DNA from: an uncultured bacterium
GTDB lineage: Bacteria > Latescibacterota > Latescibacteria > Latescibacterales > Latescibacteraceae
DNA length: 39,081 nt
NCBI GenBank assembly: GCA_964400815.1
Contig: CAYNWJ010000001.1
Span: 7,757-46,837 of the forward strand
Reading direction: 5' to 3'
A program made the position numbers and the translations under genes. The notes under the pieces were generated by a model. That model was given only the letters and a program-made list of their open reading frames with translations, searched no databases and was not told where the DNA came from. This document shows positions 1 through 36,544 of the stretch, one piece after another. The first letter of the stretch is position 1, and each line of letters opens with the position of its first letter.

Positions 1-99
1 GAAGTGACTCAAAAAACAGGCAATGATGTGTTGTGCCGCAACGACAATCTGCTCCGCCCCTCACCGGGCGGGGCAGTAACTATACCGGAGAGATCATGA
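1..99 (+). CDS. 3' end of an upstream ORF (partial, unknown function)
   Basis: Frame 1 is open from base 1 to TGA at 97-99, overlapping the next start codon (ATGA, 96-99). Confidence 0.4.
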   Translation, partial: EVTQKTGNDVLCRNDNLLRPSPGGAVTIPERS

Positions 100-776
100 A
101 AATACTGGCGATCGGCGCCCACCCCGACGACATAGAAATCGGCTGTGGCGGCTTCCTCGTAGAGCAGAAAGAACGTGGAGCCGATCTGTCGCTCTACGTC
201 GCCACCTATGGGGAGTATGGCGGGAACAAGGCAGTGCGGAGAGCAGAGCAGGTGAATTCTGCAATCATCATCGGCTCAGGAACCAACCTCGTGTTCGGCG
301 ACATCCCGTCTGAAAAGCTGGAGATCAGCCGGGACGTCATCTGGCTCCTCGAATCTCACATTGAGAAAGTCGATCCCGACGTAATCCTGACGCATGATCC
401 CGAAGACAATCATCAGGACCACCGGAACCTGACTGCTGTCGTCATGGTTGCGTCTCGCCACCGTCGGAACATCCTGTACTACGAGGGCTTCAGCACGACC
501 GCCTTCAGCCCAAGCATTTTCTACGAGCTGTTCCCCGACACTCTCGAAAAAAAGATTAATGTCCTCAGTTCGTTCAGATCACAGGTCAACAAGGTCGTCC
601 GGGGAGCCAACATGTCTGTCGAGGAAGCTGTCCGGGCCAACGCTGTCGTCCGTGGGATACAGGCCAGATCGCGGTATGCAGAAGCCTTCAGACCGGCACG
701 AATGATGGCGAGCGAACTCGCGTTTTACCTTCCCGGAAAAACTGAAGAAGAAGCTCACCTTCTGCAAGGCAGATGA
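96..776 (+). CDS. PIG-L/LmbE family N-acetyl-sugar deacetylase
   Basis: MKILAIGAHPDDIEIGCGG (HPDD motif), R.AEQ, DVILTH...D.HQDH, C-terminal YAEAF; GGAG RBS before ATG 96. Confidence 0.9.
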   Translation: MKILAIGAHPDDIEIGCGGFLVEQKERGADLSLYVATYGEYGGNKAVRRAEQVNSAIIIGSGTNLVFGDIPSEKLEISRDVIWLLESHIEKVDPDVILTHDPEDNHQDHRNLTAVVMVASRHRRNILYYEGFSTTAFSPSIFYELFPDTLEKKINVLSSFRSQVNKVVRGANMSVEEAVRANAVVRGIQARSRYAEAFRPARMMASELAFYLPGKTEEEAHLLQGR

Positions 777-4145: not shown

Positions 4146-4541
4146 ATGAACAAGAAGCAGCGTAAGGAAGCCAAGAAGACCGTCGAGCGGTTCTTCACCG
4201 CATGGAGGTACTGTGATTGGGCGGAGATGGAGCGGTTATCCCAATGGGCATGGCGCTTCGCCAATGCCACGGAGTCTCTGGAGATGATCTATGACCTGTT
4301 CTCCTTCATGGTTCTGAGGCGTTTCAAGATCATATCCAGCGAAGTGAAGGGCGAGGCTATGATCGATGTTATCGCCATGGTTGAATACCAATACGAAGAC
4401 AGTGACGAGATTCGTAAACGCACCATCGCAGCCCGAGTGATATGCGAAGCCGCTCCGTATAAGCCGTCTCTCGACGGTGTATGGGGCGTGAACCCGATCA
4501 GCGTCATGAGGACGAAGCGCCGTGAACCTGTCAGGACTTGA
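4146..4541 (+). CDS. Hypothetical phage protein
   Basis: AAGGAG RBS, in operon between portal and minor head gene. Confidence 0.7.
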   Translation: MNKKQRKEAKKTVERFFTAWRYCDWAEMERLSQWAWRFANATESLEMIYDLFSFMVLRRFKIISSEVKGEAMIDVIAMVEYQYEDSDEIRKRTIAARVICEAAPYKPSLDGVWGVNPISVMRTKRREPVRT

Positions 4542-5647: not shown

Positions 5648-6616
5648 ATGAAGAAAACCCTCTCCATCATCTGCGCCCCCGGCCTCGACAACTTCCTCGC
5701 CTGGGCTCCGCGCCTCAAGGGCGAGTACGAAGTCAGCATCCATGCCGACGGCACGGCCCCGCACACTGTGGCGAACAGCGATATTATATGGCTCGAATGG
5801 GCGAACGAGACGGCGGTGCAGCTCACACGCATGATGGCCCAGGGCGTCCACCCGTTCGACATGACGGAACAGGAGGCGCGCCCGAAGGTCGTCGTCCGCC
5901 TGCACTCGTATGAGGCGTTCACGAACATGCCGGGCATGATAGACTGGTCTGTCGTCGATCACCTCGCCTATGTCGCCGACCATGTCCGGGAGATCGCCGA
6001 GGAGTACAACCCCTTTCTGGCGAACACAGGGTGCCGGTGCACCATCATCCCGAACGGTGTCGAGCTCGACAGTATAGAGCATCTCGATCCCGGCCCCGGC
6101 TTTGATATAGCCGTCGTCGGTTCTATCAATCACAAGAAGAACCCGGCGATGGCACTCCAGGTCATTCAGGAGCTGATCGAGGAATATGACAGCCGGTTCA
6201 GGCTCCATTGGGCGGGCGCATTCCAGGACCCCCGGTACGAGGTCTACCTGAGTCACATGGTGGAGCTGATGGAGCTCGAAGACCATGTGAAGTTCTACGG
6301 CCACGTCGATGACATGGACTCGTTCTGGCGGGGCAAGAACTATCTGCTTCACACGTCCGTCCACGAGGGCCACAGCTACGCGATCATGGAGGCGATGGCT
6401 CGGGGCATCCAGCCCGTGATCCACAACTATTACGGCGCCGACAGGCAGTACCGGGAAGAATGGCTGTTTGATAGTGCGAGATTCGCAGCCGAAAAGATTG
6501 CATTCGGCGAGAACTGCCACCGAAGGTTCCCATCACGGCCGTGGGTGGAGGAGAAGGGCTGGACGCTCGACGATCAAGTGGCGAACATCAGGAAACTGCT
6601 CGGAGGTCTGCAATGA
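5648..6616 (+). CDS. GT4 (GT-B fold) glycosyltransferase
   Basis: RLHSYE, IIPNGV, VGSINHKKNP, TSVHEGHSYAIMEAMARG (E-X7-E); GAGG RBS before ATG 5648. Confidence 0.9.
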   Translation: MKKTLSIICAPGLDNFLAWAPRLKGEYEVSIHADGTAPHTVANSDIIWLEWANETAVQLTRMMAQGVHPFDMTEQEARPKVVVRLHSYEAFTNMPGMIDWSVVDHLAYVADHVREIAEEYNPFLANTGCRCTIIPNGVELDSIEHLDPGPGFDIAVVGSINHKKNPAMALQVIQELIEEYDSRFRLHWAGAFQDPRYEVYLSHMVELMELEDHVKFYGHVDDMDSFWRGKNYLLHTSVHEGHSYAIMEAMARGIQPVIHNYYGADRQYREEWLFDSARFAAEKIAFGENCHRRFPSRPWVEEKGWTLDDQVANIRKLLGGLQ

Positions 6617-6852
6617 GACTGCTCAGGATCGTGTGGCTGTATGCTCTCGTTCTCTGGAGGTGGTTCTGCGCCCCGTTCGTCCTGCTCTACAAGCTCTATG
6701 TCACCGTCCGGCTGGCGATAGGGAAGTACGTGCTTTCATCACTCGACGACTGGATGTCCGATGCCGGATGGAAGCGGCATGAGCGCCGGCAGTTCTGGAG
6801 GGAGTTCGTGAAGACCCAATCCGCCCGCAACGAAGTGTTCAGGAGGCTCTGA
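6613..6852 (+). CDS. Small hydrophobic/membrane-anchored protein
   Basis: MRLLRIVWLYALVLWRWFCAPFVLLY hydrophobic N-terminus; overlaps both neighbours (ATGA / TGATG); GGAGG RBS. Confidence 0.6.
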   Translation: MRLLRIVWLYALVLWRWFCAPFVLLYKLYVTVRLAIGKYVLSSLDDWMSDAGWKRHERRQFWREFVKTQSARNEVFRRL

Positions 6853-7523
6853 TGGACAATGAAAAGATCGCCGCATTCTATGACTCGTTCCTCGAAAGGA
6901 TGAAGTACGACCACGAGCACGCGAACCGGCGGCATTTCGCCATATTCAATCATCTTGGCAAACGGCTGAAGGGACGCATCGGCCTGACAGTGCTGGACAT
7001 CGGCTGCGGCACCGGACTTTCATCATCGTTCATGGCCGACAACTTCAATACGCGCATCACCGCGGTCGATCTCTCCCCCGCCCTGATCGAGTTCGCCCGC
7101 GAGCACTCCGCCCATGAGAATGTCGAATATATCTGCGCCGACGCAGCCTCTCTCGATCTCGGGATGAAATACGACATCGTCGTCATGGCGGACTGTTTCG
7201 AACACTTCCCCCGGGATAGAATCTTCGATCTCAGAGCCGTCATTCAGGCGCACACGCACGATATGAGCGAGCTCTATATCAACATACCCTACGGCCCGTT
7301 TTCCGAGTTCATACGCCGCCACAGCCCTTCATCGATGCAGATCATCGACGAGGTGTATGATCCGGACTTCATCATTCGCTTCTTCATGGACATCGGACTC
7401 GTTCCGTCCGAGATCGAAGTCTACGGCATCGACACCTCCCAACCTCAGTACATGGCGGCATGGTTCGTCAACCGCCAGTATTTTACCCGAGAGGCAAAGA
7501 CCGCCCTCGGCCTGAAGGATTGA
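6852..7523 (+). CDS. Class I SAM-dependent methyltransferase
   Basis: VLDIGCGTG motif I, TAVDLSP, YDIVVMADCFEHF; AGGAGG RBS; no DPPY/PC DNA-MTase motif. Confidence 0.9.
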   Translation: MDNEKIAAFYDSFLERMKYDHEHANRRHFAIFNHLGKRLKGRIGLTVLDIGCGTGLSSSFMADNFNTRITAVDLSPALIEFAREHSAHENVEYICADAASLDLGMKYDIVVMADCFEHFPRDRIFDLRAVIQAHTHDMSELYINIPYGPFSEFIRRHSPSSMQIIDEVYDPDFIIRFFMDIGLVPSEIEVYGIDTSQPQYMAAWFVNRQYFTREAKTALGLKD

Positions 7524-7917: not shown

Positions 7918-8649
7918 ATGGCTTGGAAGACGGATGAGGAACGGACAGAGTACATCAGGAACGCCTTGAAGGAGGCGGGCTTGAGTCTGGAGCTCGTGTC
8001 GAAGATCACCGGCCAGGATGAACTGGCGGTCACGAAAGAGGTCATGAAGCTCGTGATCTCCGACGTTGATCGCCGGGTGAACAAGGCGGTGGAGACCACC
8101 ACCGAGAAGCTGAAGAAAGAAACCGGAAAGACGGATGAAGGCGGCGCTGCTCAGGCTGCTCAGACGGCTTCCGGCACACAGGCGACACAGGGGGCACCGG
8201 CAGATTCATCGCAACCTGAATTCGCCAAGATCATCGCCGACACCGTCGGCAACGCGCTCAAGCCGATTACCGATCGAATCGACGCCATCGAGAGGGAGAA
8301 GGCGGGGGCAAACAGGAGCTCGAAGATTCGGGACGCCCTGAAGGAGGCCGGACTGAGCGAGAGCTACGAGAAGTACATCACCGTCGATGACGAGGCCAAG
8401 ATCACGGACGCTGTCGAGGCATTCAAGGGTGACCTCCAGGCGGACAGACAGGCGGCCATCGACGAGGCGCTGGCGAAATCAGGCGTGCCGGCCCGGGGGA
8501 ACAACACGACCACGGTGTCGGAGGACAGCGCGAAAGACTTCGCCCAGCTCCGCAACAAGAAGCAGGTGAGCGGCGACGGAGATTTCCCGACCGTCGATGT
8601 GTTCGCCTACAAGGAAGCACCATCGCAAACAGGAGCAAGTAAGATATGA
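7918..8649 (+). CDS. Capsid scaffold protein (putative)
   Basis: Charged, helical, low-complexity Ala/Gln/Thr linker; lies before decoration and capsid genes; AAGGAG RBS. Confidence 0.7.
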   Translation: MAWKTDEERTEYIRNALKEAGLSLELVSKITGQDELAVTKEVMKLVISDVDRRVNKAVETTTEKLKKETGKTDEGGAAQAAQTASGTQATQGAPADSSQPEFAKIIADTVGNALKPITDRIDAIEREKAGANRSSKIRDALKEAGLSESYEKYITVDDEAKITDAVEAFKGDLQADRQAAIDEALAKSGVPARGNNTTTVSEDSAKDFAQLRNKKQVSGDGDFPTVDVFAYKEAPSQTGASKI

Positions 8650-9266
8650 GCCTCGAAATAAAGAAGGAGACCGGCACCCAGTACCATCCGGTGTTTCTGT
8701 CGATCCTCGAGGACATCCCCGGCGGTGGTACGCTGAAGACGGATCGCATCCCCTCCACGACAAAGATCATCAAGGCCGGTGCTCTGGTGAACGCCGATTC
8801 GACCACGGCCGGCCTGTTCAATCTCGTGAAGACAGCGAAGCTGAAGCGTACCCTCGGAACCGCCGCCTGTGTGACGATCTACGTCTACACGACCCACGAG
8901 TTCAAGGTGGGCGAGTATGTCGGCATCCAGGGACGGGGATCGGCCGCGACGATTGCAGCCATCACCCGGGCGACCGGCACGGACACCATCGTCTTCACTG
9001 CTGGCGGCGGAGGTCTGAATGCCACCGCCATCACCAGTACCGTCCTCGAGGAGTGCTCGGCGGCCGCCGTGACCGGCGCAGCCGTTAAGTACGCGGCAAC
9101 CGGCATCCTCAGAAACACCGCTCGTGTGCGGAACGACGATCTGAGCACCAAGGAGAACGTCGATGCCGCCGTTGTCGTCCGCGGCACGGTCAAGGAGAGC
9201 ATTCTCCCCTACTCCGTCACCACCGCAGACAAAACCGCCCTGACCGACCGGATCAGGTTCGCATAA
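8646..9266 (+). CDS. Head decoration/cement protein, Thr-rich
   Basis: Directly upstream of MCP; 'EDIPGGGTL', 'AAVVVRGTVKESILPY' ends typical of decoration proteins; about 32 Thr in 206 aa. Confidence 0.65.
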   Translation: MSLEIKKETGTQYHPVFLSILEDIPGGGTLKTDRIPSTTKIIKAGALVNADSTTAGLFNLVKTAKLKRTLGTAACVTIYVYTTHEFKVGEYVGIQGRGSAATIAAITRATGTDTIVFTAGGGGLNATAITSTVLEECSAAAVTGAAVKYAATGILRNTARVRNDDLSTKENVDAAVVVRGTVKESILPYSVTTADKTALTDRIRFA

Positions 9267-9284
9267 GAAAGGAGGTGAAGAACT

Positions 9285-10397
9285 ATGTATCCGACACTGC
9301 TTACTGAGATCAACAGTAAGACTCTGACGGCGTACCTCACGGAACGAGTGTACGACAAGCTGTACTTCCCCCTGTTCTTCCCCTTCGAGTTCATCCCGAG
9401 CCTCACCTGGGAGAGCCTGATCGGAAGCAAGGGTCACCGGATCGCCGCCGATGTGGTCGCCTACGACACGTCTGCCCCGCTGAAGACCCGCCAAGTCGTC
9501 AGCAAGCTGTCCGGTGAGATTCCGGCCATCCGCACGAAGCGCAAGATGGACGAGAAGGACATCCTCACCTACGACATCCTGAAGAACATGGCGAACTCGG
9601 ACCAGCAGAAGATTCTCGATCTGGTCTACGGCGATGTGGATTTCGTGGTGGATGCCGTGACCGCCCGTATCGAGTGGCTGGCCCTTCAGGCCCTGAGCAA
9701 GTCCACGCTCACCCTGACGAAGACCAACAACGCCGGAATAGTCACAGAGTCGTCTGTCGATTTCCAGATGCCGTCCGCAAACAAGAAGGTGGAGTCCGCG
9801 GCGAACCAGTACTGGACGACAGGTGCCTATTCGACCAACGATCCCATCGGCGACATCGAGGACATGGTCGGCTATATGGCAGCCATCGGCTCCAAGCCCC
9901 GGTACATTCTCATGAACCTCACGAAGTGGCAGGCGTTCCGCACCTCCACCGCCGTTCAGAACTTCGTCATCCCGTTCGCACTGTACGGCGGAACGAAGGT
10001 GAAGCGGGCGCCCTCCCTTGCCGTGGCGAACATGGCGCTCCGCGAGGAGGGGCTGCCGGAAATCGTCATCATCGACACCCGGATCACGCTCGAAACGGAA
10101 GCCCATGTGCAGACCGCCTACGACCCGTGGTGCGATTCGTCATCGGCGGACCGATACGTCACCTTCATCCCCGACATGGTTTGCGGTCACACGTACTATG
10201 GCCCGATCGCGGAGGAGATCAGACCGCCCAAGCAGGTGACACAGGCGAAGAAGGGGCCCATCCTCGTCAGCAAGTTCTCGACGGAGGACCCGGTCGCCGA
10301 GTTCACCAAGGGCGAGATCAATGCCTTCCCCGTGTGGGAGAACGTCGAGCAGTGCATGATCCTCGACACCGAGTCCCACACCACGTTCGGAGCCTAA
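9285..10397 (+). CDS. Major capsid protein (lambda gpE-like family)
   Basis: 370 aa; 'AADVVAYDTSAPLKTR', 'GEIPAI', 'ARIEWLALQALS', 'DPVAEFTKGEINAFPV'; AGGAGGT RBS. Confidence 0.88.
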   Translation: MYPTLLTEINSKTLTAYLTERVYDKLYFPLFFPFEFIPSLTWESLIGSKGHRIAADVVAYDTSAPLKTRQVVSKLSGEIPAIRTKRKMDEKDILTYDILKNMANSDQQKILDLVYGDVDFVVDAVTARIEWLALQALSKSTLTLTKTNNAGIVTESSVDFQMPSANKKVESAANQYWTTGAYSTNDPIGDIEDMVGYMAAIGSKPRYILMNLTKWQAFRTSTAVQNFVIPFALYGGTKVKRAPSLAVANMALREEGLPEIVIIDTRITLETEAHVQTAYDPWCDSSSADRYVTFIPDMVCGHTYYGPIAEEIRPPKQVTQAKKGPILVSKFSTEDPVAEFTKGEINAFPVWENVEQCMILDTESHTTFGA

Positions 10398-10400
10398 ACC

Positions 10401-10748
10401 ATGACGAACCTCGAGGCATTGCAGTCCCTGACGGAGTTCTCCGATACCAACCTGTTCACGAAAGTCATGACGGACAGGGGGGTGACGCCGGGGGACACTT
10501 ACGCGGCCGGCAATGCTCAGGTGATAGATCTCTGCCTTGCGGATGTCTATCTACGTCTGGCGGCAAGCCCGGACATATCCGAATACGGGCTGTCAGTGAA
10601 ATGGACTCGAGAGTCCCTGATGGCGGCCCGGAAAACACTCTACGACAAGTGGGGGCTGGCGCTGCCGGAATCCACGAGCCGAAGAAGCACTCCCGGGGTG
10701 ACGGGGAGACCCGTCACCGTCGGGGGAAAAACCTATCCCGCGTGGTGA
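10401..10748 (+). CDS. Head-tail adaptor (putative)
   Basis: 115 aa immediately after MCP; 'DLCLADVYL...SPDISE.GLSV.W...YDKWG'. Confidence 0.65.
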   Translation: MTNLEALQSLTEFSDTNLFTKVMTDRGVTPGDTYAAGNAQVIDLCLADVYLRLAASPDISEYGLSVKWTRESLMAARKTLYDKWGLALPESTSRRSTPGVTGRPVTVGGKTYPAW

Positions 10749-10751
10749 GCC

Positions 10752-11066
10752 ATGACGTTCGAGAGATACCCTCATTCGGCGACAGTCTCGTATGTCGCCC
10801 CCGGCACAAAGAGCGCAACAGGCGTCGTTACGCCCGGGACGCTGGCGACGGTCAGCATCTCGAAATGCCGGGTTGAGGTGAACAACTCACGTTTCGTTAT
10901 CGGCGAAAACGGGGAGCGAATCGAATACGCCCTGAGCGTCATCTGCCCGCTCTTGAGTGGAGTCGATTCAATCCCGAACGGAGCGAAGCTCTCCTGTGCA
11001 GGAAAAACCTATACCGTAGTCGAGATACCGCCGTTGCAGACCCACACCCTGATCCGGTGCAAGTGA
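10752..11066 (+). CDS. Head closure/stopper protein (putative)
   Basis: 104-aa beta-rich protein in the neck gene cluster. Confidence 0.6.
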   Translation: MTFERYPHSATVSYVAPGTKSATGVVTPGTLATVSISKCRVEVNNSRFVIGENGERIEYALSVICPLLSGVDSIPNGAKLSCAGKTYTVVEIPPLQTHTLIRCK

Positions 11067-11067
11067 C

Positions 11068-11514
11068 ATGAGCCCGATGAAACCCAAATTCTCGCAGAAG
11101 GCGGTCGCTGACCGCATCGACCAGTTCGTCGAGGACAAGCAGAAGCAGGCGTTCGAGACGCTGGCGTACATCGGCGAGACGATTGTCAACCGGGCTCGTG
11201 ATATGGCTCCGTTCGAGGACCAGACCGGCAATCTCAGAAGCTCGATCGGCTATGTCGTCATCGTGAACGGCGATCTGAAAAAGCTCGAAGTCACGAAGGC
11301 GAAGAAGGACGAGCGCGGCGCCGGTGTGAAACGCGGCAAGGACCTGGCGAAGGAGTTCGGGGAGAGATTCTCCAAGGGCATTGTCCTCGTCGTCTTTGCC
11401 GGAATGGAGTATGCGGCGGCAGTCGAGAGCAGGGGATATGACGTGATAACCGGAAGCGTTGAGACCCAATCGGCTCTGTATGCAATGCTGAAAGAGGAGC
11501 TTGGCCTCTCGTGA
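11068..11514 (+). CDS. Neck/tail completion protein (HK97 gp10-like)
   Basis: DQTGNLRSSIGY and AGMEYAAAVE motifs. Confidence 0.8.
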   Translation: MSPMKPKFSQKAVADRIDQFVEDKQKQAFETLAYIGETIVNRARDMAPFEDQTGNLRSSIGYVVIVNGDLKKLEVTKAKKDERGAGVKRGKDLAKEFGERFSKGIVLVVFAGMEYAAAVESRGYDVITGSVETQSALYAMLKEELGLS

Positions 11515-11909
11515 AAACCACCTACGACGTGCTCGATCACTTCTACACGGCGCTGAACGTCACCTCGGTGACATCACTCATCGACGGCGCCGTCTGGCGG
11601 CGGAAGAAGCCCCTCGGCCGGGAGCTGAAAGACATCGTCATCGTCACGCTCCCGATCAAGGGTGACGAGCACGACGTTCAGGAGGGCACGGTTGTCGTCA
11701 ACATCTTCTGCCCGAACCTCGACGGCGGGACACCGAACGAAACGGTGCTGAATTCCATCACGGATGCCGTGATCGCGGCGATCGAAGCGTACACGGCGGC
11801 GACGGAGTATTTCGGCACTGTGATTGTCAGCGAGAATACAATGCAGGACCAGGATGTCGAGGAGATGTCGTACTCGAGCATCAGGGTCAATTTCTATATC
11901 GAGAGTTAA
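11511..11909 (+). CDS. Tail terminator protein (putative)
   Basis: 132 aa, acidic, directly before tail tube; GTGA overlap with previous gene. Confidence 0.6.
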   Translation: MKTTYDVLDHFYTALNVTSVTSLIDGAVWRRKKPLGRELKDIVIVTLPIKGDEHDVQEGTVVVNIFCPNLDGGTPNETVLNSITDAVIAAIEAYTAATEYFGTVIVSENTMQDQDVEEMSYSSIRVNFYIES

Positions 11910-11920
11910 GGAGGTCAGCA

Positions 11921-12424
11921 ATGGGAACCAAGCGGGCTGTCGGGCTCGAAAGCATCCTGATCGGTGCGGTCAACACGACCACCTATGCGATTCCGACCAC
12001 GCTCACGACCATCGCGAATATCGTTCCCGATACCGCCAAGCTGGCATTCGAGAATCCTGAAGCACTCCAGTTCTACGTGGAGGATTCGGACGATGTGGAT
12101 GTCGAGATCACCGGCAGCTCGAAGAAGGGACTCGAGTTCGCCACCTATGACATGAGCCAGGAGAATTTCGTTCTTGCCTTCTCCGGCACCACGTCGGGCA
12201 CGCTGTTCAGGGCGCCGGTCACGGCGACCGTCACTGTTCAGCGGGCCGTCCGCATCACCACGAAGGAGTACAACGGCTACCAGCTCCAGTTTGACATTCC
12301 GAACTGTTCGATCAGGGCGGGTGGTGAGCTGAAGTTCTCGAAGGCCGGCCCCGGCAGTATCACATTCAACGGAACCGTTCTGAAGTGCGGCGCCACGGCA
12401 CCGCTCGTCATGAGATACATCTAA
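11921..12424 (+). CDS. Major tail (tube) protein
   Basis: 167-aa beta-rich protein before the chaperone/tape measure genes; strong AAGGAGGT RBS; Thr-rich. Confidence 0.7.
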   Translation: MGTKRAVGLESILIGAVNTTTYAIPTTLTTIANIVPDTAKLAFENPEALQFYVEDSDDVDVEITGSSKKGLEFATYDMSQENFVLAFSGTTSGTLFRAPVTATVTVQRAVRITTKEYNGYQLQFDIPNCSIRAGGELKFSKAGPGSITFNGTVLKCGATAPLVMRYI

Positions 12425-12431
12425 CGGCGAA

Positions 12432-12455
12432 GGGCGGAGAGAAGATGCTCCGCCC
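12432..12455 (+). terminator. GC-rich stem-loop after tail tube gene
   Basis: GGGCGGAG / CTCCGCCC stem; pyrimidine tail but weak U-run. Confidence 0.4.
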
Positions 12456-12480
12456 CTCTCCTTACCCGGAAGGTTGTGAC

Positions 12481-13056
12481 ATGGAGAACAACTCGAAAGC
12501 AACCGCGGCCACGCAGCAGAGGGCGTACGACGCCATCCTCGAGAAGGGCGTCGATTTCGACGTTGAGTTGGCCCGCCCGAACTGGCTTCACCGGATCGGG
12601 CTGCTTCCGAAAGTCCGAAAGTTCGTCATCAAGCCCCTGTATCTCGGAACCCTGTTCAGGGTCACGAAACTCATCCTCGAGATCGACACCGACGTGCTGA
12701 AGGAGGCCGATGGAAACCTCCACGCCATCGGAGTCGAGAGCATCGCCCGTCACAAGGACGGGCTGGTGAGGATCGTCGCCCTTGCCGTCACGAACGGCGA
12801 CCGGGAGCCCCCGAAGCGGCTGGTGCGGTTCCTCGACCGGAACCTGACGCCGAAGGACCTGCTCAGACTCGTCATGCTGGTGGTTCAGCAGATGGAGGTG
12901 CGGGATTTTTTGGCATGTATGGTCTCGATCAGGCAGATAAGCCTGAGCGGGGCCGGGAAGAAGGAGACCGGCCAGACGCCTCGAACCTCTGGCAGTCCAT
13001 CGGATGCCTCGTCAAGTATTACCGATTCGGTTGGCGAGACATACTGTGGGGCATAA
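12481..13056 (+). CDS. Tail assembly chaperone (gpG-like)
   Basis: Between tail tube and tape measure; contains slippery run GGGATTTTTTG. Confidence 0.75.
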   Translation: MENNSKATAATQQRAYDAILEKGVDFDVELARPNWLHRIGLLPKVRKFVIKPLYLGTLFRVTKLILEIDTDVLKEADGNLHAIGVESIARHKDGLVRIVALAVTNGDREPPKRLVRFLDRNLTPKDLLRLVMLVVQQMEVRDFLACMVSIRQISLSGAGKKETGQTPRTSGSPSDASSSITDSVGETYCGA

Positions 13057-13169
13057 GCTGGCCGAACCTCGTCATGCTGACGTGCTCGATCCCGAAGACG
13101 GACGACAAGAAGAACGACGCCGAAGAAATCACTGATTTACGAGAATTGGAGAGCCTGCTCGCGCTATGA
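12906..13169 (+). CDS. Tail assembly chaperone -1 frameshift extension (gpT-like)
   Basis: -1 frame relative to gpG opens after T TTT TTG (12906-12912); encodes LWQSIG...ILWGISWPNLVML..SIP; no clear RBS of its own. Confidence 0.65.
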   Translation, partial: FFGMYGLDQADKPERGREEGDRPDASNLWQSIGCLVKYYRFGWRDILWGISWPNLVMLTCSIPKTDDKKNDAEEITDLRELESLLAL

Positions 13170-14389
13170 AAACGGAAAAAAGACCACTGCTGAGCATCTG
13201 CATGATCGTCAAGAACGAGGAAGCCAACCTGCTTCGCTGTCTCGATTCCCTCCTGCCGCTGATAAACTGGCGTGACGACGAAACCCTCGAGCGCATGACC
13301 GAGTTGGTCGTCGTCGATACCGGCTCCACCGACAGGACGGTGAACGTGGCGAAGCGGTACACGGAGCGAGTCTACAAGAAGACGTTCGTCCCGTGGGACT
13401 TCTCGGCCGCCCGGAACTTCAGCACATCGAAGGCCCGGGGGGAGAAGATCATGATCGTCGATGCCGACGAGGAGCTCGCACAGCAGAGTATCTATCTCCT
13501 CGAAAACTACCTGATGAATCCCGACTGGAAAGAATACAAGACGCTGTTCCTGAAGATCAGGAACTACTACAAGGCCGACCTGAAGCAGTTCACCGAGATG
13601 CTTCAGCCGAGAGTGTTCGAGAACGACGGCAAGCCCATATACGAAGGCTCGATCCACAACAAGCCCCGCGCGATGGCGGCGTACCTGTTCGCCCCGGACG
13701 TCATCCTGAATCACTACGGATATCAGTTCGAGGGCAAGCCGGAGCTGTACAAGAAGAAGAACAGGGACCGGACGCTGCCGATGCTCGTCGAGAAGTATGA
13801 AGCCGATTCCGAAGACATTCACACACTGACCCATCTGGCGAAGACCCACTACGTCATGGAGAATCACGAGGGCGTTGTGGAGATCGGCGAGAAGTGGATG
13901 AAACGGATGGCGGAGACCAAGGTGGACGAAGGCTGGTTCGCCTTCTTCGAGGTGTTCGTGAACCTCGTCGCCTCGTATCTGGTGCTGGACCGTCCCGATG
14001 ATGCCGAGCGGGTCATGAAGGAAGCCGAGAAGTACACCGGCAGGCTCCTGAACATGTACTACTACCTCGGATTGTACTGGCAGTCGAAGGATGAGGCGAA
14101 GGCCGCCGAGTTCTACGAGAAGTGCGTCACCATCGCCAGTGAGGAAGGGAGCCTCTACGAGCTGCTCGTCTCGAACAACACCCTCATCATTCTGCCCCAG
14201 GTGCTGAACTGGCTGGCCGCCTATTACTACGGCCGGGGCGAATACATCAAGGCCGGGAACTGCGTCAACGAGGGCATCAGGATAAACGAGAACCGCGTCC
14301 CGCTCGCGTGGGACATCTGGAACCACCCCGACGTGCAGGGGAAGGCTCCCGGGGAATCCTGCCATGCCGATGAACGTACAGGGGAGTGA
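13166..14389 (+). CDS. GT2 glycosyltransferase with C-terminal TPR-like repeats (protein glycosyltransferase type)
   Basis: LSICMIVKNEE, VVDTGSTDRT, WDFSAARN, IVDADEEL (DxD), YEGSIHN, HYGY, then helical TPR-like region (YYYLGLY..AAEFYEKC). Confidence 0.9.
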   Translation: MKTEKRPLLSICMIVKNEEANLLRCLDSLLPLINWRDDETLERMTELVVVDTGSTDRTVNVAKRYTERVYKKTFVPWDFSAARNFSTSKARGEKIMIVDADEELAQQSIYLLENYLMNPDWKEYKTLFLKIRNYYKADLKQFTEMLQPRVFENDGKPIYEGSIHNKPRAMAAYLFAPDVILNHYGYQFEGKPELYKKKNRDRTLPMLVEKYEADSEDIHTLTHLAKTHYVMENHEGVVEIGEKWMKRMAETKVDEGWFAFFEVFVNLVASYLVLDRPDDAERVMKEAEKYTGRLLNMYYYLGLYWQSKDEAKAAEFYEKCVTIASEEGSLYELLVSNNTLIILPQVLNWLAAYYYGRGEYIKAGNCVNEGIRINENRVPLAWDIWNHPDVQGKAPGESCHADERTGE

Positions 14390-17300
14390 CAGTCTCTATT
14401 GGTCCACGGGGTTCGACAACTCCGGCCTGAAGAGCGGATCGACCGACGCCAAGGGCATCATCCGCAATCTCGCCGCCTCCATCTCCAAGGAGGACGTGTT
14501 CGCGGCGATCGGCGTTTCCGCCGTTGCCGCTTTCGGCGTTGCATCCCGTGCCGCCTACGGCTTCGCCAAGGACCTTCAGACTTCGATGGGCGAAGTGCAG
14601 ACCATCTCCGCCGATGTCCAGCGCAACCTCGAAGGCTACACCAACGCCATCGTCGATATGTCCCGGCGTCTTCCCGACACCGCCCAAGGGCTGAGCCGCG
14701 CCTATTATCAGGTGGTTTCGGCCGGATATGACGGGGCCGAAGGGCTGCGCGTCCTCGAATCCGCCTCGAAGGGCGCCATCGCCGGTGTCACCGACACCCT
14801 CACCGCGGTTGACGGCCTGACGACCGTCCTCAACTCCTTCAAATATGAAGTGTCCGAATCCGACAAGGTCATGGACATCCTGTTCAAGACCGTCGAAAAG
14901 GGCAAGACCACGTTCCCCGAGCTTGCCTCGAAGATCGCCATTGTCGCCCCGCTCGCGGCCGCAACGGGCGTCTCCCTCGAGGAGATCATGGGCGGGCTGG
15001 CGACCCTCACGAAACAGGGTACTCCGACCGCAGAGGCCATGACGCAGATACGGGCATCTCTCGTCAGCCTGAACGAGGTGCTCGGCGACGGCTGGTCGAA
15101 AACCATGACCTTCCAGGAGGCGATGCAGGCCGTCTACGACAAGGCCGGCGGGAGCCAGAATGAGCTCCGGGACCTGCTTGGGCGTGTCGAGGCCCTGAAC
15201 GCCGTGCTCGCGCTCTCCGGTCAGAACTTCGAAGGGGCCGCCGCCGATCTCGACGCGATCCGCGACAGCGCCGGAGCCGCCGGAGCCGCATACGAGACGA
15301 TGGCGTCCAAGGCCGAGAACCAGTTCAAGCTGCTCCACAACACGACGCTGGCGAAACTCAAGCCTCTCGGAGACGCCCTGCTTGGAATGGCGACCGATGT
15401 TTCCGGTGGCCTGCTCACGCTGCTCAACGATACCGACTCGTTCCTCGAGCGGATGATCCGCAGCCACGAAGAATTCATCGCGGTGCTCGGCAAGGAGAAG
15501 CATCACCTGCAAAGCCTCGTCGATCAGCTCGATGAACTGAAGAAGGGCACGGAGGAGTACACCCAGGTGGAGGCCCAGCTCATCGCCTATCTCGGCGACG
15601 ATATGACGATGGCGCTCTCGGATGCAACGGAGAAAATGGACGCCTACGCCGTCGCCAAGCAGCGCATCATCGACCTCGACAAAGAGATACTGCTTTCCCG
15701 GAGAGAATTGGTGCTTGCCGAGATCGAAATGAATCGTATCGAGCAGGAAAAACTCCGTCTCGGAGAAGCGAAGATAGAAAAAGAAATCGACTACCTGAGA
15801 CAGCGCAGAGAAAACAGAATCAAAGATGCCAGGCAGACAGCAAAAGAGCTGGCTCAATCTGATAAGACATATGCAGATCAGACCCTTGATGGTGGTTTGA
15901 CGGCAAGACAGCAGGAAATTCGCATAAAGCTCGCGAGACCTGGCGGGATTGAACGACTTGAGCGGGAATACTTCAACAAGCAAATGGAACGAATTAATCA
16001 GCTTGCCTCCGTGAGACAGGAGGAGTTGAGGCTCAAGGAGTTAGAGCAAGAAAAGATTGTTCGGTGGCAAACCTTGATACTCAACGGAAAGCAACTCCAG
16101 GAAAGCCTGAATGGGTATACGAATGCCCTTGAACATTATGGAGATGCTGTCAAGGAGACCGCCGACACTGAAAAACCCTCCGGGATGAAGCGTTTCGGTC
16201 TCGTCACCGGCGGCGATTACCGGCCTGAAGGCGATGCCGCGTTCGAGATGGAAAAGCAGCTCATCCAGCAGAAGATCGACCTGTACGAATATTCTATCGA
16301 CCGGCGGAGAGATCTCGAGCGCGGCCTGTTCATGGTTGTCAGGGACCTTCAGGACGACGAACTCCGCAACTTCATTGCGAACGCCAAAGAGCAGCTCAAG
16401 TACATCAAGGAGAACTCCGAGCTCCGCACCCTGTGGCTGAAGAAGATTCAGGATGCCGAAGATGAAATGGCACGCCGCCAGCGGGAGAACCTTCAGGACA
16501 TGTCAGATGCCATCCGGGAGATGGGCGATTTCATGGCCCTGTTCGACGAGGACCTTTCCCGGACCGCCTACGCGGTCAGCGGCCTCGTGAGGAGCCTTGG
16601 AGACCTGACGGCGGCTACGAACCCGTTCGAGCAGATCGGTGCCGGTGTGAGCGCCGTCGGTTCTGTCATCGGCATCATGGATTCGATCTTCGGCGGCGGC
16701 AGAAGCAACGCCGGCCAGAAGTACATCGACCAGATGGAGACGCTGAACGCACAAACCCAGAAGCAGCTCGACCTGCTCAGGCGGATGAACGGCCAGGAGG
16801 CCCTCGGCGGCCTCATCGACCTGTACGCCCGGCTCAATGACGAGATAGTCGGGAACATCGAGTCCCTGAAAAATCTTATGGTTGTGACCCGGCAGGGAAA
16901 AAACAACCGCTACACGACTCTCGGAGAATGGGCGAGCACGAACGGGCGGAGCATGCTCGATCTCACGGCGGAAGAAATCAAGAGCCTGTTCAATTCGCAG
17001 AGCACCCGGGATGCTTATGAAGCCCTCGTCGATGACATAAACAAGGCGAAGGAGGCGCTGCTCGACTACCAGGACGAATACAAGGAGATCGTCACCGGAA
17101 CAACCGCCGAGTCCATCGCCGATTCGATAGCCGAAGGCTTCTCCCAGGGCCTCGACGATGCTGAGATATTCGCCGACACGTTCGAGAAGCTGATGCGGAA
17201 CGCCATGACGGAAGCGTTCAAGCGCCAGCTCATCACCGAGCACCTGAACTACTTCTACGACGAATTCTATTCGTCGCTCGCATCCGGTGGAGAGTTGACC

Positions 17301-17900
17301 GCCGAAGAAATCGCACAGCTCGCCGCATCCCTCCAGCGCGACATCACCCTTGCCACGAGTACCTGGGAGGACATGAAGAAGATCATGCAGGAAGCCGGAC
17401 TCGATCTCGTCGATGCCGTGGATGAGGAGGCCAAGAACAAGTCCGGGCTGTCTGGCGCCATTCAGGGTATCACGGCGCAGCAGGCGGATATGCTCGAGGG
17501 CCAGTTCAACGCCGTCCGCATCGACATCAAGTCCGTGCTCGAACTCATGCGCTCCGAGAGCCTCGTGCTCACGACATCCGGGGAGCGTCTCCGGGTCATT
17601 CAGGACCGCATGAAAAGCATCGACAACAGCGCATACTACCTCGACGACATCTTCGCCCGCAGCGACATGTCATTGAACGCGCTCCGGGACATCCGGGACG
17701 CCAGCTACAACATCTCGGGGGTGATGTTCGACCGGCTCGATGATTTGGTCGAAACGAACAGGCGGATCGCGAACAACACCGAGCTGCTCAAGACGGTAGT
17801 CAAACTGCTCGGGACGGCCCCGGCACAGAAACAGGCCTACTACAACCCGGCAATCACGCCCGACGATGAGATCACCATGAACCGGGCGATGGGGGTGTGA
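14364..17900 (+). CDS. Tape measure protein (TP901-type core)
   Basis: 1178 aa, Ala-rich helical; 'YYQVVSAG', 'DILFKTVEKGKTTFPELA', 'GVSLEE' TP901 core motifs. Confidence 0.93.
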   Translation: MPMNVQGSDSLYWSTGFDNSGLKSGSTDAKGIIRNLAASISKEDVFAAIGVSAVAAFGVASRAAYGFAKDLQTSMGEVQTISADVQRNLEGYTNAIVDMSRRLPDTAQGLSRAYYQVVSAGYDGAEGLRVLESASKGAIAGVTDTLTAVDGLTTVLNSFKYEVSESDKVMDILFKTVEKGKTTFPELASKIAIVAPLAAATGVSLEEIMGGLATLTKQGTPTAEAMTQIRASLVSLNEVLGDGWSKTMTFQEAMQAVYDKAGGSQNELRDLLGRVEALNAVLALSGQNFEGAAADLDAIRDSAGAAGAAYETMASKAENQFKLLHNTTLAKLKPLGDALLGMATDVSGGLLTLLNDTDSFLERMIRSHEEFIAVLGKEKHHLQSLVDQLDELKKGTEEYTQVEAQLIAYLGDDMTMALSDATEKMDAYAVAKQRIIDLDKEILLSRRELVLAEIEMNRIEQEKLRLGEAKIEKEIDYLRQRRENRIKDARQTAKELAQSDKTYADQTLDGGLTARQQEIRIKLARPGGIERLEREYFNKQMERINQLASVRQEELRLKELEQEKIVRWQTLILNGKQLQESLNGYTNALEHYGDAVKETADTEKPSGMKRFGLVTGGDYRPEGDAAFEMEKQLIQQKIDLYEYSIDRRRDLERGLFMVVRDLQDDELRNFIANAKEQLKYIKENSELRTLWLKKIQDAEDEMARRQRENLQDMSDAIREMGDFMALFDEDLSRTAYAVSGLVRSLGDLTAATNPFEQIGAGVSAVGSVIGIMDSIFGGGRSNAGQKYIDQMETLNAQTQKQLDLLRRMNGQEALGGLIDLYARLNDEIVGNIESLKNLMVVTRQGKNNRYTTLGEWASTNGRSMLDLTAEEIKSLFNSQSTRDAYEALVDDINKAKEALLDYQDEYKEIVTGTTAESIADSIAEGFSQGLDDAEIFADTFEKLMRNAMTEAFKRQLITEHLNYFYDEFYSSLASGGELTAEEIAQLAASLQRDITLATSTWEDMKKIMQEAGLDLVDAVDEEAKNKSGLSGAIQGITAQQADMLEGQFNAVRIDIKSVLELMRSESLVLTTSGERLRVIQDRMKSIDNSAYYLDDIFARSDMSLNALRDIRDASYNISGVMFDRLDDLVETNRRIANNTELLKTVVKLLGTAPAQKQAYYNPAITPDDEITMNRAMGV

Positions 17901-17901
17901 C

Positions 17902-18333
17902 ATGGGAGCCTATCTGATCGACGGCAACAATCTGAAGACGACCTATGGCGTCCGCGTCCTGAAAGTAGCCGGGCCCCTCGACTTTCTCGCCCGCAAGGGT
18001 GAGACATCCCATGACTGGCCCGATTCCGACGGCGAGGAGGCGTTCACCGATTCAACGGACATCTATTTCAAGTCCCGCGAGATCAGGCTCACCTGTCTGC
18101 TTGTCGCCAGCTCGAACAGTGATTTCGAAACGAAGCTGAAGGCCCTGAAGTACCTGTTGGAGGCCGCCGGAACACACACGCTGACCCTGCCGTACTGGAC
18201 CGAAACCTTCACCCTCATGTTCAAGGGCGGCGATCAGGTGGAAGTCGTCACAAAATGGGGCGGCGACGCCGTCGTCGGCAAGTTCACCCTGACATTCACG
18301 GAAGTCACCCCGTCGCGGGCGACGAGCCCATAA
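17902..18333 (+). CDS. Distal tail protein (Dit-like)
   Basis: 143 aa directly after TMP; 'HDWPDSDGEE', 'SREIRLTC', 'GKFTLTFTEVTP'. Confidence 0.65.
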   Translation: MGAYLIDGNNLKTTYGVRVLKVAGPLDFLARKGETSHDWPDSDGEEAFTDSTDIYFKSREIRLTCLLVASSNSDFETKLKALKYLLEAAGTHTLTLPYWTETFTLMFKGGDQVEVVTKWGGDAVVGKFTLTFTEVTPSRATSP

Positions 18334-18349
18334 AAGGAGAAGATGAACC

Positions 18350-19141
18350 ATGGGATGCCTCACGAATTACGCCGAGAACGAGGTTCTCGATCACGTCTTG
18401 AAAGTCGGTTCGTTCACGCGGCCGGCCACCCTGTATCTGGCGCTCTGCAAGTCCGATCCGGGCGAAGCCGCCACCGGAGCCGGTCTCGACGAGCCGTCCG
18501 GCGGTGCTTACGCCCGCCAGTCTATCAACGTTTGGGATTCGGCGGCGAGCAGGGCCACGGCGAACACGAGCGATATCCCGTTCCCCACGGCTACAGGCGA
18601 TTGGGGGACGATCACGCATTGGGCGATATGCGATGCCCTCACCGACGGGAATGTCTTGGCGTATGGGGTGCTGAGCGCATCGAAGAACGTGGAGACCAAC
18701 GGGACGATCTCCGTGCTGGCAGGCGACCTCGATATAAGCATCAACAGCGGTGGAATGTCAAACTATCTGGCAAACGCCATCCTCGATCACCTGTTCGAGG
18801 GGACGGCCTACACCCCGGCGACGAACCTGTATATCGCAGTGCTTACCGCGGCGGCGAGTGATTCCGATACCGGCAGCACCATCACCGAGCCGGGCGATAC
18901 ATATGCCCGGCAGAATGAAAACACATGGGATGCGGCTGCCGCTGGTCTCTCACAGAACAGTTCTCTGGTGGCATTCCCGGCGGCTACGACATCATGGGAC
19001 ACGCTGACGCATCATGCGATCTGTGATGCCCTGACGAACGGCAATCTCCTGCTTTATCACGCTCTCGATGATAGCCGCGTTATAGGCACGGGAGACATCG
19101 CAGAGTACGCCGCCGGTGCGCTCAAAGTAACGCTCGACTAA
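18350..19141 (+). CDS. Tail fibre/baseplate-associated protein with two tandem homologous domains
   Basis: Two ~130-aa repeats: NY.EN.VLDH...YLAL...EP..G.YARQ...FPTAT.DWGTITH.AICDALT.GN.L. Confidence 0.8.
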   Translation: MGCLTNYAENEVLDHVLKVGSFTRPATLYLALCKSDPGEAATGAGLDEPSGGAYARQSINVWDSAASRATANTSDIPFPTATGDWGTITHWAICDALTDGNVLAYGVLSASKNVETNGTISVLAGDLDISINSGGMSNYLANAILDHLFEGTAYTPATNLYIAVLTAAASDSDTGSTITEPGDTYARQNENTWDAAAAGLSQNSSLVAFPAATTSWDTLTHHAICDALTNGNLLLYHALDDSRVIGTGDIAEYAAGALKVTLD

Positions 19142-19156
19142 TCGACGGAGACTGAT

Positions 19157-20002
19157 ATGGGATATTGGAAAGACGTGCTGGCGAAGATAGCAACCGAGGT
19201 GGACAATGCTTTTGATACCGCCATCCCCGGATCGCCAACAGCCGGAAGCGTGAACGACGTGCTGAAAGACCTCGACGGCGTCCTTCCGGCGAGTGGGACG
19301 CTGGCGACGGTGAGCGACTTGAGCAGCGGCTTTACCGACAAGGAAAAATCCCTGCTCGGTCTTGGTGTCCATCCCGGCTACCGCTTTTTCTTCAACGACG
19401 TTGCGGATGGGGCCGATCCGAATACCAGTGAATGGGACGTACTCGAAACGGGAGGTGCGGCGGTAACTGTCGAGAACGATGACTCTAATGTTCCAAGCAG
19501 GGTCGTTTGTGATTCTGGAGCGACTACAAATGACAGCGCCGCTATACGAACCATTAACCATGTGTCGCTAAAGAACGGCACTACCGAATGTCATCTCAAG
19601 GCGCGAATATATCTGGACGCCCCAAATGGTGAAGATTATGGTACGTTATGGGGCCTTTGTCCTGCGGCTTATGCTTTTGCCTCAACAGCCTCCTTCTTCC
19701 CGAATGGTGCATGTATTCATAATGGCTATTCCGGGGGGCGAACATGGTATTTTAGAATATATGACGGCGTGAATGACGATGACATAGTTATTACATCGTA
19801 TTTCACTGAATCCACGTGGATGGATGTTGAAATAGTCATTAACGACTCGGGCGTGGCAACTCTGTATATCGACGGGACGCAACGGGCGCAGTCCTCCACC
19901 GCAACAATATCGGCGAACTGGAAGGGATATATAGGGAGCAAGGGACGAAATAGCAAGGCGGGTATCGCAAAATGCCAATTTATGGAACTCTGGGGAGAAT
20001 AA
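19157..20002 (+). CDS. Putative receptor-binding/fibre protein with ConA/LamG-like C-terminal domain
   Basis: In tail-tip cluster; 'TWMDVEIVIND.GVATLYIDGTQRAQ' beta-sandwich pattern. Confidence 0.55.
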   Translation: MGYWKDVLAKIATEVDNAFDTAIPGSPTAGSVNDVLKDLDGVLPASGTLATVSDLSSGFTDKEKSLLGLGVHPGYRFFFNDVADGADPNTSEWDVLETGGAAVTVENDDSNVPSRVVCDSGATTNDSAAIRTINHVSLKNGTTECHLKARIYLDAPNGEDYGTLWGLCPAAYAFASTASFFPNGACIHNGYSGGRTWYFRIYDGVNDDDIVITSYFTESTWMDVEIVINDSGVATLYIDGTQRAQSSTATISANWKGYIGSKGRNSKAGIAKCQFMELWGE

Positions 20003-20418
20003 TGATGGAACTTATCAAAAAGATACACACGGAAGTTGATGAACTTCCCGGAACCAAATACGTCTACGGGCTGGCCGGTGTCGTCATGGAGGAAATATTC
20101 ATTCCCGATCCGGACGCCACCACGCTTGACCCGGAAACGATGGAGGATGTACCGTTATCCGATGAGCAGAAGCGCGCCGCGCACCGGCGTATATTCAACA
20201 TCCAACGTGACCGACGGTTCGGTGAAACTGAATGGATAAAATCGCGAGCGGAGGAAGTGAAAACACTCTACTCCGAGGGCAAAATATCACAAGCGCGAGC
20301 CGATGCTATCAAGGCGAAGTATATCGAGTATCTCGAATATCGTCAGGCTCTCCGCAACATGCCGCAAGCTGAAGACTTCGACCCGCGCAATCCCAACTGG
20401 CCCACGAAACCGGAGTAA
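20002..20418 (+). CDS. Tail fibre assembly chaperone-like protein
   Basis: RDRRFGETEW ... EYRQALRNMPQ...NPNWPTKPE C-terminal motif typical of fibre assembly chaperones. Confidence 0.75.
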   Translation: MMELIKKIHTEVDELPGTKYVYGLAGVVMEEIFIPDPDATTLDPETMEDVPLSDEQKRAAHRRIFNIQRDRRFGETEWIKSRAEEVKTLYSEGKISQARADAIKAKYIEYLEYRQALRNMPQAEDFDPRNPNWPTKPE

Positions 20419-32116: not shown

Positions 32117-32201
<85 letters not shown>

Positions 32202-36540: not shown

Positions 36541-36544
36541 GTCC

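Follow-up and report, generated by a model that had tools for sequence, protein, structure and literature searches.

Why should a phage keep a glycosyltransferase gene between the genes for its tail assembly chaperone and its tape measure protein? The question is raised by a stretch of 39,081 nucleotides (nt) from an uncultured bacterium of the Latescibacteraceae (GenBank assembly GCA_964400815.1, contig CAYNWJ010000001.1, positions 7,757 to 46,837 of the forward strand), which was analysed as a whole and is called the window below. The window contains a prophage, and the gene in question encodes a putative protein glycosyltransferase of 407 amino acids (aa), in which a family 2 glycosyltransferase domain (GT2) is followed by helices resembling tetratricopeptide repeats (TPR); we refer to it as GT2-TPR. 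With moderate confidence, we lean towards a cytoplasmic protein glycosyltransferase, expressed late, that initiates glycan attachment on virion proteins.

The GT2-TPR gene and its slot

The gene, its two presumed catalytic motifs and its neighbours in the tail module are the following.

13166..14389, + strand: GT2 plus TPR-like putative protein glycosyltransferase (open reading frame (ORF); PF00535; match to GmaR; AlphaFold2 model; SunS and ThuS folds)
13304..13333, + strand: LVVVDTGSTD motif containing the invariant D51, presumed nucleotide-binding loop (from the translation)
13460..13468, + strand: DxD motif D99-A-D101, presumed metal and nucleotide-sugar site (translation MIVDADEEL; invariant in homologues)
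11921..12424, + strand: tail tube protein, candidate acceptor (weak match to NCBIfam tail_tube_6XGR, E 8.5e-6; PHROG 6767)
12481..13056, + strand: tail assembly chaperone, G-like zero-frame product (position between tube and tape measure; PHROGs 15994/12247, function unassigned; frameshift layout)
12906..12912, + strand: slippery heptamer T_TTT_TTG for a putative -1 programmed frameshift (in phase in the sequence)
12915..13169, + strand: extension in the -1 frame, forming the T-like part of the G/GT chaperone (stop overlaps the GT2-TPR start)
14364..17900, + strand: tape measure protein, 1178 aa (PF10145, E 8e-26; PHROG 991, E 2e-43)

The first-pass annotation of this DNA, made from the sequence alone, had described a 407-aa enzyme lodged between the tail chaperone and tape measure genes and overlapping both, and the gene is present exactly so. 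Its start ATG shares 4 nt with the stop of the chaperone extension (ATGA), and at its other end 26 nt are shared with the beginning of the tape measure ORF. The annotation's remark that the codon style is that of the structural genes also holds: the GC content at third codon positions (GC3) is 0.85, like that of the portal, capsid and tape measure genes, and the relative synonymous codon usage (RSCU) correlates with that of the other structural genes at 0.92, equal to the values for the tape measure and portal genes.

A Pfam search returned no family for the gene upstream of GT2-TPR, including the known chaperone families. We regard it as a G/GT-type tail chaperone because of its position and its -1 frame extension; judged by its layout, the ORF pair between tube and tape measure is the classical G/GT tail-chaperone arrangement. 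On the + strand, no promoter-like or terminator-like site was found in the interval 11500-18500; matches occurred only on the - strand and were no commoner than in shuffled sequences. We propose that GT2-TPR is expressed, at both the transcript and the protein level, as part of the late virion operon.

Fold and nearest characterised enzymes

GT2-TPR is a GT2 enzyme both by score and by motif. Pfam assigns aa 10-118 to PF00535 (GT2) with an E-value of 7.5e-17 and 62.2 bits against a cut-off of 23.3. The DxD motif, which the first-pass annotation had called intact, is present as D99-A-D101 and is invariant in 20/20 aligned homologues, as is D51 of the VVDTGSTD loop. In the C-terminal half, matches to TPR families span aa 294-376, every one of them under the cut-off (the top one, TPR_2, scores 25.1 against 27). 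The PHROGs match is family 13126, labelled 'beta-1,4-glycosyltransferase' and filed under moron / auxiliary metabolic genes.

The AlphaFold2 model of the protein, computed with 20 homologues as input, has a predicted local distance difference test score (pLDDT) of 86.7 and a predicted template modelling score (pTM) of 0.82. It comprises a GT-A domain of approximately aa 1-190 (nt 13166-13735), followed by a helical TPR-like domain of approximately aa 192-375 (nt 13739-14290), in which nine helices extend over aa 192-374. The model aligns with many solved GT-A enzymes (Z 14-25), as expected of a GT-A fold. The helical half can be aligned to TPR proteins, with a Z-score of 15.6 for MamA and 14.6 for the TPR domain of OGT. 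The label 'TPR-like', given by the first-pass annotation on the basis of the sequence, is fair, because the modelled helices align both with the helical domains of SunS and ThuS and with these TPR proteins. The hydropathy peak of the protein falls on the helix at aa 256-274 (Kyte-Doolittle value 1.72), which is packed inside the helical domain in the model.

A Foldseek search of the PDB places SunS and ThuS first, with E-values of about 1e-13 over 384-395 columns, the next family following at about 4e-7. Structural alignment gives the same picture: SunS aligns with a Z-score of 24.6 over 278 residues (root-mean-square deviation 2.6 Å) and ThuS with 22.9 over 327 residues, while no other GT-A enzyme exceeds 16.7, and TarS, TarP and SpsA lie at 14-16. 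SunS and ThuS (PDB 7MSN, 7MSP, 7MSK) transfer sugars to polypeptide acceptors and have the architecture of GT2-TPR, an N-terminal GT-A domain with DxD motif and then a helical TPR-like domain, which the matches cover in full length. However, their sequence identity to GT2-TPR is merely 16-21%, and the score of GT2-TPR against the SunS-family model TIGR04195 is 29.5 bits, far from the equivalog cut-off of 350. Their home is also different, a bacteriocin cluster rather than a phage tail module: no precursor peptide, peptidase-transporter or disulfide enzyme is encoded near GT2-TPR among the window genes.

The top sequence match of known structure is the glycosyltransferase domain of GmaR from Listeria monocytogenes (22ao_A), with an E-value of 5.1e-22 over aa 3-201; the runner-up has 7e-4. 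The catalytic domain is GmaR-like, with VDTGSTD, DAD and HYGY motifs common to the two proteins. [quoted passage not shown] GT2-TPR, in contrast, stops after the TPR-like domain and lacks the linker and anti-repressor domains. GmaR is a chromosomal motility regulator, at once flagellin O-GlcNAc transferase and MogR anti-repressor, whereas GT2-TPR is a phage late gene. These comparisons support placing GT2-TPR with the protein-acting enzymes of GT2 plus TPR-like architecture (GmaR, SunS, ThuS). By analogy, it would work in the manner of SunS- and GmaR-type enzymes, although it belongs to neither named family.

Conservation of the slot and of its sugar genes

Is the gene a chance arrival or an old resident of this slot? 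The first-pass annotation had suggested long-standing residence and had proposed searching viral databases for the enzyme beside tape measure genes. A scan of IMG/VR with the GT2-TPR protein returned 80 loci, of which 25 have a homologue at 42-53% identity (a 66-residue fragment at a contig end, L033, matches at 68%). The same structural gene order surrounds the gene in all 25. A further scan, made with the capsid protein, contributed four loci with the gene in the slot (L085-L088, 38-44% identity), bringing the total to 29 distinct related viral loci. Downstream, the tape measure match begins at most 20 nt from the stop of the glycosyltransferase gene in 22/24 loci in which both downstream DNA and a tape measure match are present; the exceptions are L008, with a gap of about 620 nt, and L019, whose tape measure N-terminus is unmatched. 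Upstream, the chaperone extension is found at 28/29 slot loci, the contig of the remaining one (L012) ending within inserted genes. A -1 extension with an in-phase X_XXY_YYZ heptamer is present in 22/24 loci examined, the window included, and the heptamer contains a T-run in all 22.

The gene has also evolved with its phage. Over 18 loci (153 pairs), the identity of GT2-TPR tracks that of the capsid protein with a Pearson correlation of 0.886, which none of 2000 Mantel permutations reached; mean identities are 55% and 54%, respectively. In this set, the translated range of L086 included the terminal stop. The ratio of nonsynonymous to synonymous substitution rates (dN/dS) falls within 0.06-0.16 in every one of the 37 pairs whose amino-acid identity is 70-99%. 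GT2-TPR is thus under strong purifying selection and has co-diverged with the capsid gene, and the residence proposed by the first-pass annotation is indeed a long one. In five more distant relatives (L091, L092, L093, L095, L098; capsid 34-40% identical), the chaperone gene is followed directly by the tape measure gene. We therefore conclude that the gene was gained in one lineage and has been kept since.

Relatives of the window also carry other genes between the chaperone and glycosyltransferase genes, and the slot therefore behaves as a site for accessory genes. An ORF of 119/120 aa is found there in ten loci (L013:4113-4475; also L011, L014-L018, L021, L033 and L070). It has a weak Peptidase_C39 match under the cut-off (E 0.0032) and Cys/His motifs that we take to be C39-like; it is confined to one subclade, and no homologue was found in the genome from which the window comes (best tblastn E 0.79). 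In seven loci (L011, at 5654-6001; L012, L013, L016, L017, L021, L070), the gene directly upstream of GT2-TPR is a homologue of a 131-aa gene that in the window follows the portal gene (4146-4541), at 37-41% identity to the window protein. This homologue remains beside the portal gene in L091 and L093, which lack GT2-TPR, and in L187. The largest insert (L008:2068-6001, about 3.9 kb) encodes a 133-aa ORF, a 1010-aa Gly/Ser/Tyr-repeat protein and a 95-aa ORF, none with a Pfam family above the cut-off. In L070 (4807-6937), the glycosyltransferase homologue itself is split by an intein that contains a LAGLIDADG endonuclease (PF14890, E 1.2e-10; PF14528, E 6e-10). The intein separates precisely the D from the T in the nucleotide-binding loop (VVD before it, TGSTD after it); its first residue is Ser and its last are His-Asn, followed by Thr.

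The same phage encodes further sugar enzymes, which are listed here with the head-module products that concern the argument.

5648..6616, + strand: GT4 (GT-B) glycosyltransferase, proposed glycan extender (PF00534, E 4.5e-16)
6852..7523, + strand: class I S-adenosylmethionine (SAM)-dependent methyltransferase, proposed glycan modifier (PF13649, E 1.7e-18)
8646..9266, + strand: 206-aa Thr/Ala-rich protein, candidate acceptor (ORF between the scaffold and capsid genes; conserved in relatives)
9285..10397, + strand: major capsid protein, lambda gpE-like, candidate acceptor (PF03864, E 2.1e-18; PHROG 29)
33..776, + strand: PIG-L family de-N-acetylase (PF02585, E 2.1e-21)

Both the GT4 and the methyltransferase gene belong to the head module, with the portal/minor-head genes on one side and the scaffold gene on the other. 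The longest ORF for GT4 begins at 5480; the likely start is the ATG at 5648, which is preceded by GAGG. A GT4 homologue (40-45% identity) was found in 8/10 virus records that carry GT2-TPR and in 0/5 that lack it, three of these five containing the whole portal-to-capsid stretch. In one of the two GT2-TPR-bearing records without GT4 (G007), the contig ends just upstream of the capsid gene and the region is absent; in the other (G009), a LamG-like gene and small ORFs take its place. Methyltransferase homologues adjoin GT4 in L184 and L185, as found by tblastn and confirmed as methyltransferases by Pfam. Relatives contain extra enzymes as well: besides methyltransferases, a UDP-glucose/GDP-mannose dehydrogenase in L184 and L186 and a GFO/IDH/MocA oxidoreductase in L185. 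L086 has a different set upstream of its scaffold gene, comprising a methyltransferase, a Glyco_trans_1_2 enzyme, an NAD-dependent epimerase, a radical-SAM enzyme and a second GT2. GT2-TPR is thus the constant element and the other sugar enzymes vary, the pattern expected of an initiating, protein-recognising transferase accompanied by glycan diversifiers.

The place of the PIG-L gene is uncertain. Its product could trim GlcNAc on a glycan, and it could equally serve DNA modification. Immediately left of the window (L191:4730-7468), a TET-associated glycosyltransferase (TAGT; PF20691, E 3e-9) and MazG are encoded, followed by PIG-L, ahead of the terminase gene; the 237-aa ORF directly upstream has no Pfam match. 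The row suggests a DNA hypermodification cluster of the same prophage. No PIG-L homologue was found in the regions examined of five relatives. Because TAGT and MazG adjoin it and no homologue lies in those regions, we have downgraded PIG-L as a member of a virion pathway.

Beyond the clade, 37 distant viral loci were found through the GT2 domain (24-43% identity). A head-and-packaging, connector or tail PHROG (E <=1e-5) is among the nearest ORFs (four or fewer) in 25/37 of them, a count made without a chance control and suggestive only, because structural genes fill much of phage contigs. The distant arrangements include capsid, glycosyltransferase, head-tail adaptor (L028, L032, L034, L054) and terminase, glycosyltransferase, portal (L073, L084). 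Elsewhere the gene stands beside collagen-like tail fibre genes (L062, L064, L071, L077), followed in L062 and L071 by a second glycosyltransferase (PHROG 2170). Fused glycosyltransferases of 949-1001 aa are encoded after a capsid gene and an HNH endonuclease gene in L050, L075 and L078, and fused forms follow the capsid gene directly in L058 and L079. A hidden Markov model of 20 tape measure N-termini detected a tape measure gene in 2/55 distant loci, 4-5 kb from the glycosyltransferase gene, with a sensitivity limited by its coverage of one tape measure family. Many phage and giant-virus proteins in BFVD have the same two-domain fold and are labelled just 'glycosyltransferase', and the top cluster for GT2-TPR in a language-model atlas has 66 members, 96% of them viral.

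Cellular relatives are more remote. The gene was found in 0/12 genomes of the host's family and is therefore taken not to be a host gene. Distant GT2-TPR paralogues (29-37% identity) occur in some genomes of the host's phylum, and a scan of GTDB yielded nothing above 44%, that being a partial match. One genome of the phylum (G029:C6:305973-323631) has six tandem paralogues in about 18 kb, with open frames of 538-633 aa and 29-37% identity. Among isolated phages, megablast with window positions 9000-20000 gave no near-identical or related match, and tblastn with the capsid protein against isolates and GenBank records gave no phage capsid more than 35% identical. In our literature searches, some aimed at this question and others covering GmaR and SunS, we did not come across any GT2-TPR gene described for the slot between chaperone and tape measure, an absence that rests on those searches alone.

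The prophage is bordered on the right by a tRNA-Tyr gene (32117-32201, - strand), beyond which lie host RND-efflux genes (32363-38308, - strand). This operon encodes an AcrB-like protein (32363-35464), an HlyD-like protein (35464-36582) and an outer-membrane factor (36545-38308). Because an RND pump with an outer-membrane factor is encoded beside the prophage, the host is taken to be a diderm bacterium. The GC content of the contig, 58.0%, matches that of the genome, 59.2%. The host genome has two flagellin genes.

What the enzyme may glycosylate

What, then, would such an enzyme do in a late operon? In the reading that we favour, GT2-TPR would be a soluble, cytoplasmic, inverting GT-A glycosyltransferase whose C-terminal TPR-like domain binds polypeptide, as in SunS, ThuS and GmaR. 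With a host nucleotide-sugar as the source, it would attach the first sugar to one or more freshly synthesised virion proteins, at Ser/Thr or perhaps Cys, either ahead of assembly or in its course. To judge from GmaR and SunS, the likeliest donor would be UDP-GlcNAc or UDP-Glc. GT4 and the methyltransferase of the head module might then extend and cap the glycan, with the UDP-sugar dehydrogenase, oxidoreductase, epimerase and others perhaps taking similar parts in relatives, and the end product would be glycan-decorated particles. Three proteins are candidate acceptors: the tail tube, the major capsid protein and the 206-aa protein whose gene immediately precedes that of the capsid. The last of these has no Pfam family and presumably occupies the position at which lambda has its decoration gene. 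The tail tube has variable Ser/Thr/Cys-rich loops in the alignment, one of them directly ahead of the last strand; that this loop near the C-terminus is a glycosylation site is speculative. A prediction of the complex of GT2-TPR with the tail tube scored 0.00 against a mark of 0.32, with controls not run, and says nothing either way.

The first-pass annotation had gone on to suggest a role linked to tail assembly, such as glycosylation of the tube or the tape measure protein. This interpretation is partly supported: the long residence in the slot is borne out, a role tied specifically to the tail stays conjectural, and the partner enzymes are encoded in the head module, which points to glycosylation of the whole virion rather than to a function confined to the tail.

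To our knowledge, glycosylation of phage particles has been demonstrated in mycobacteriophages only, and we know of no group other than the actinobacteriophages with demonstrated virion glycosylation. Freeman et al. reportedly found that glycosylation there shields virions from antibodies, and are reported to have seen little evidence of it in other phages. In mycobacteriophage Corndog, an O-methyltransferase and glycosyltransferases are encoded between the genes for portal and protease, inside the virion operon (PMC4351075), and for enzymes of this kind a modification of capsid and tail tube proteins is reported (PMC11600133, in a passage citing Freeman et al. 2023). The present phage resembles these systems (Che8, Corndog and Myrna type) in having glycosyltransferase and methyltransferase genes in the virion operon. 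It differs in its diderm host and in the placement of one enzyme between the chaperone and tape measure genes. Searching 50,697 phage records by tblastn, we obtained eight weak, partial matches of the GT2 domain for GT2-TPR, none from a mycobacteriophage, and zero matches for GT4.

Several observations weigh against virion glycosylation. All that is said above about glycan, acceptor, donor and order of steps is inference. GmaR, the closest characterised relative by sequence, acts on a host flagellin, and this host has flagellin genes. The mycobacteriophage precedent is an analogy, not a homology, because the tblastn search found no mycobacteriophage relative of GT2-TPR or GT4. When the C-termini of capsid, tube and 206-aa protein were compared between relatives with and without the gene, no clean clade-specific extension emerged; in particular, no Ser/Thr-rich C-terminal extension of capsid or tube separates the two groups. 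The link with GT4 is not absolute, since the 2.6 kb that precede the scaffold gene of G009 contain no GT4. PIG-L may belong to the adjacent DNA-modification cluster. The exact order chaperone, glycosyltransferase, tape measure was not seen outside the clade, and the neighbourhood count from the distant loci suffers from the missing control noted above. Finally, the hydrophobic helix at aa 256-274 counts on this side too, although it is buried in the model.

Other acceptors have to be weighed against this evidence. It is unlikely that the acceptor is a cytoplasmically made protein of the host, for example flagellin, pilin or another appendage subunit. Some points favour it: its modification could change a receptor, block superinfection or keep progeny off debris, the flagellin O-GlcNAc transferase GmaR is the nearest characterised sequence relative, the host has two flagellin genes, and cellular GT2-TPR paralogues are common in bacteria. 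However, GT2-TPR lacks the GmaR anti-repressor domain (407 aa compared with 637 residues), has co-diverged with the capsid gene and co-occurs with glycan-building genes among the head genes. Its gene is also tightly embedded among the late structural genes and lacks a separate promoter-like site, so it would be silent in lysogens and active only minutes before lysis. The late position also argues against a lipid-linked or polysaccharide acceptor, as in serotype conversion of the GtrB type or modification of a cell-wall glycopolymer. Enzymes of the GtrB type are membrane-associated bactoprenol-phosphate glucosyltransferases, encoded as lysogenic-conversion morons with GtrA/GtrC near the attachment site. 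The GtrB-like enzymes of O-antigen conversion by temperate phages are, like GT2-TPR, phage-encoded GT2 proteins with a DxD motif; most GT2 enzymes use sugars or lipid carriers, the label and category of PHROG 13126 fit such a role, and TarS, TarP and SpsA are structural neighbours. But the full-length fold match is to the peptide-acting SunS and ThuS, well above the polysaccharide enzymes, and GT2-TPR has a TPR-like domain where GtrB enzymes have membrane anchors. Its hydropathy profile contains no segment that we would call a membrane anchor, the peak lying inside the modelled helical domain, and no flippase or GtrA/GtrC-like neighbour is present in the window. We consider a lipid or polysaccharide acceptor very unlikely.

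The closeness of SunS and ThuS raises the further idea of a glycocin-like system, with, as acceptor, either a small peptide of ribosomal origin or a phage protein that has a leader and is later cut by a protease. The weak TIGR04195 match and the ORF with a weak Peptidase_C39 match before the gene in ten related loci are in line with it, as is the statement in PMC12457901 that a C39-like protease removes the leader of every known glycocin. Against it stand the distance of the TIGR04195 score from its cut-off, the restriction of the C39-like ORF to one subclade and its absence from the window's genome, and the lack of a transporter, an immunity gene or a Cys-rich precursor ORF near the gene; such a system is quite improbable here. 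Modified bases of phage DNA are the acceptor to which we give least credence. The phage DNA is probably hypermodified, to judge from TAGT, MazG and the adjoining PIG-L on the contig, just upstream of and at the edge of the window. However, with TAGT a dedicated DNA-type glycosyltransferase is already encoded in the early region, the architecture of GT2-TPR is that of polypeptide-acting enzymes, and the gene has its place among the tail genes and, in relatives, goes together with sugar enzymes of the head module.

A wider version of virion glycosylation can be offered only tentatively, and we think it rather less probable than not. A clade of uncultured siphophages of diderm hosts may possess a complete and modular pathway for glycosylating its own virions, with GT2-TPR as the universal initiator, diversifying enzymes in the head module, and TPR-type transferases widespread. 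In many unrelated viral contigs, distant GT2 homologues stand among genes for head, neck and fibres. GT2-TPR would then be the protein-recognising initiator, translationally wired into the tail-assembly block, and the GT4, methyltransferase, UDP-sugar dehydrogenase, oxidoreductase, epimerase and radical-SAM enzymes would vary the glycan from phage to phage. If true, virion glycosylation would extend to phages of diderm hosts through an unrelated enzyme family, and its performance by TPR-type transferases would be widespread well beyond the actinobacteriophages. The system is compact, with one enzyme and few candidate acceptors, and could show how a change of the particle surface affects stability, adsorption or evasion of binding; glyco-engineering could also gain a new protein-glycosylating enzyme from it. 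The interest would be considerably greater if virion glycans were demonstrated. As for the slot, the junction between chaperone and tape measure genes, usually held inviolate, can be a stable site for accessory genes.

Two further features of the tail region deserve mention. At 19157-20418 of the window, a pair of genes departs from the codon usage of the structural operon, with GC3 values of 0.54 and 0.58 and RSCU correlations of 0.21 and 0.47, far under those of the operon. One encodes a LamG-like protein and the other a protein with a Phage_tail_APC domain, and the pair looks like a recently swapped host-recognition cassette. Just upstream, at 18350-19141, a 263-aa protein contains two 'Podophage GP4 fiber I protein gp80' domains (PF23140, E 9e-76); its gene directly follows that of the distal tail protein, in a tail module of the siphophage type.

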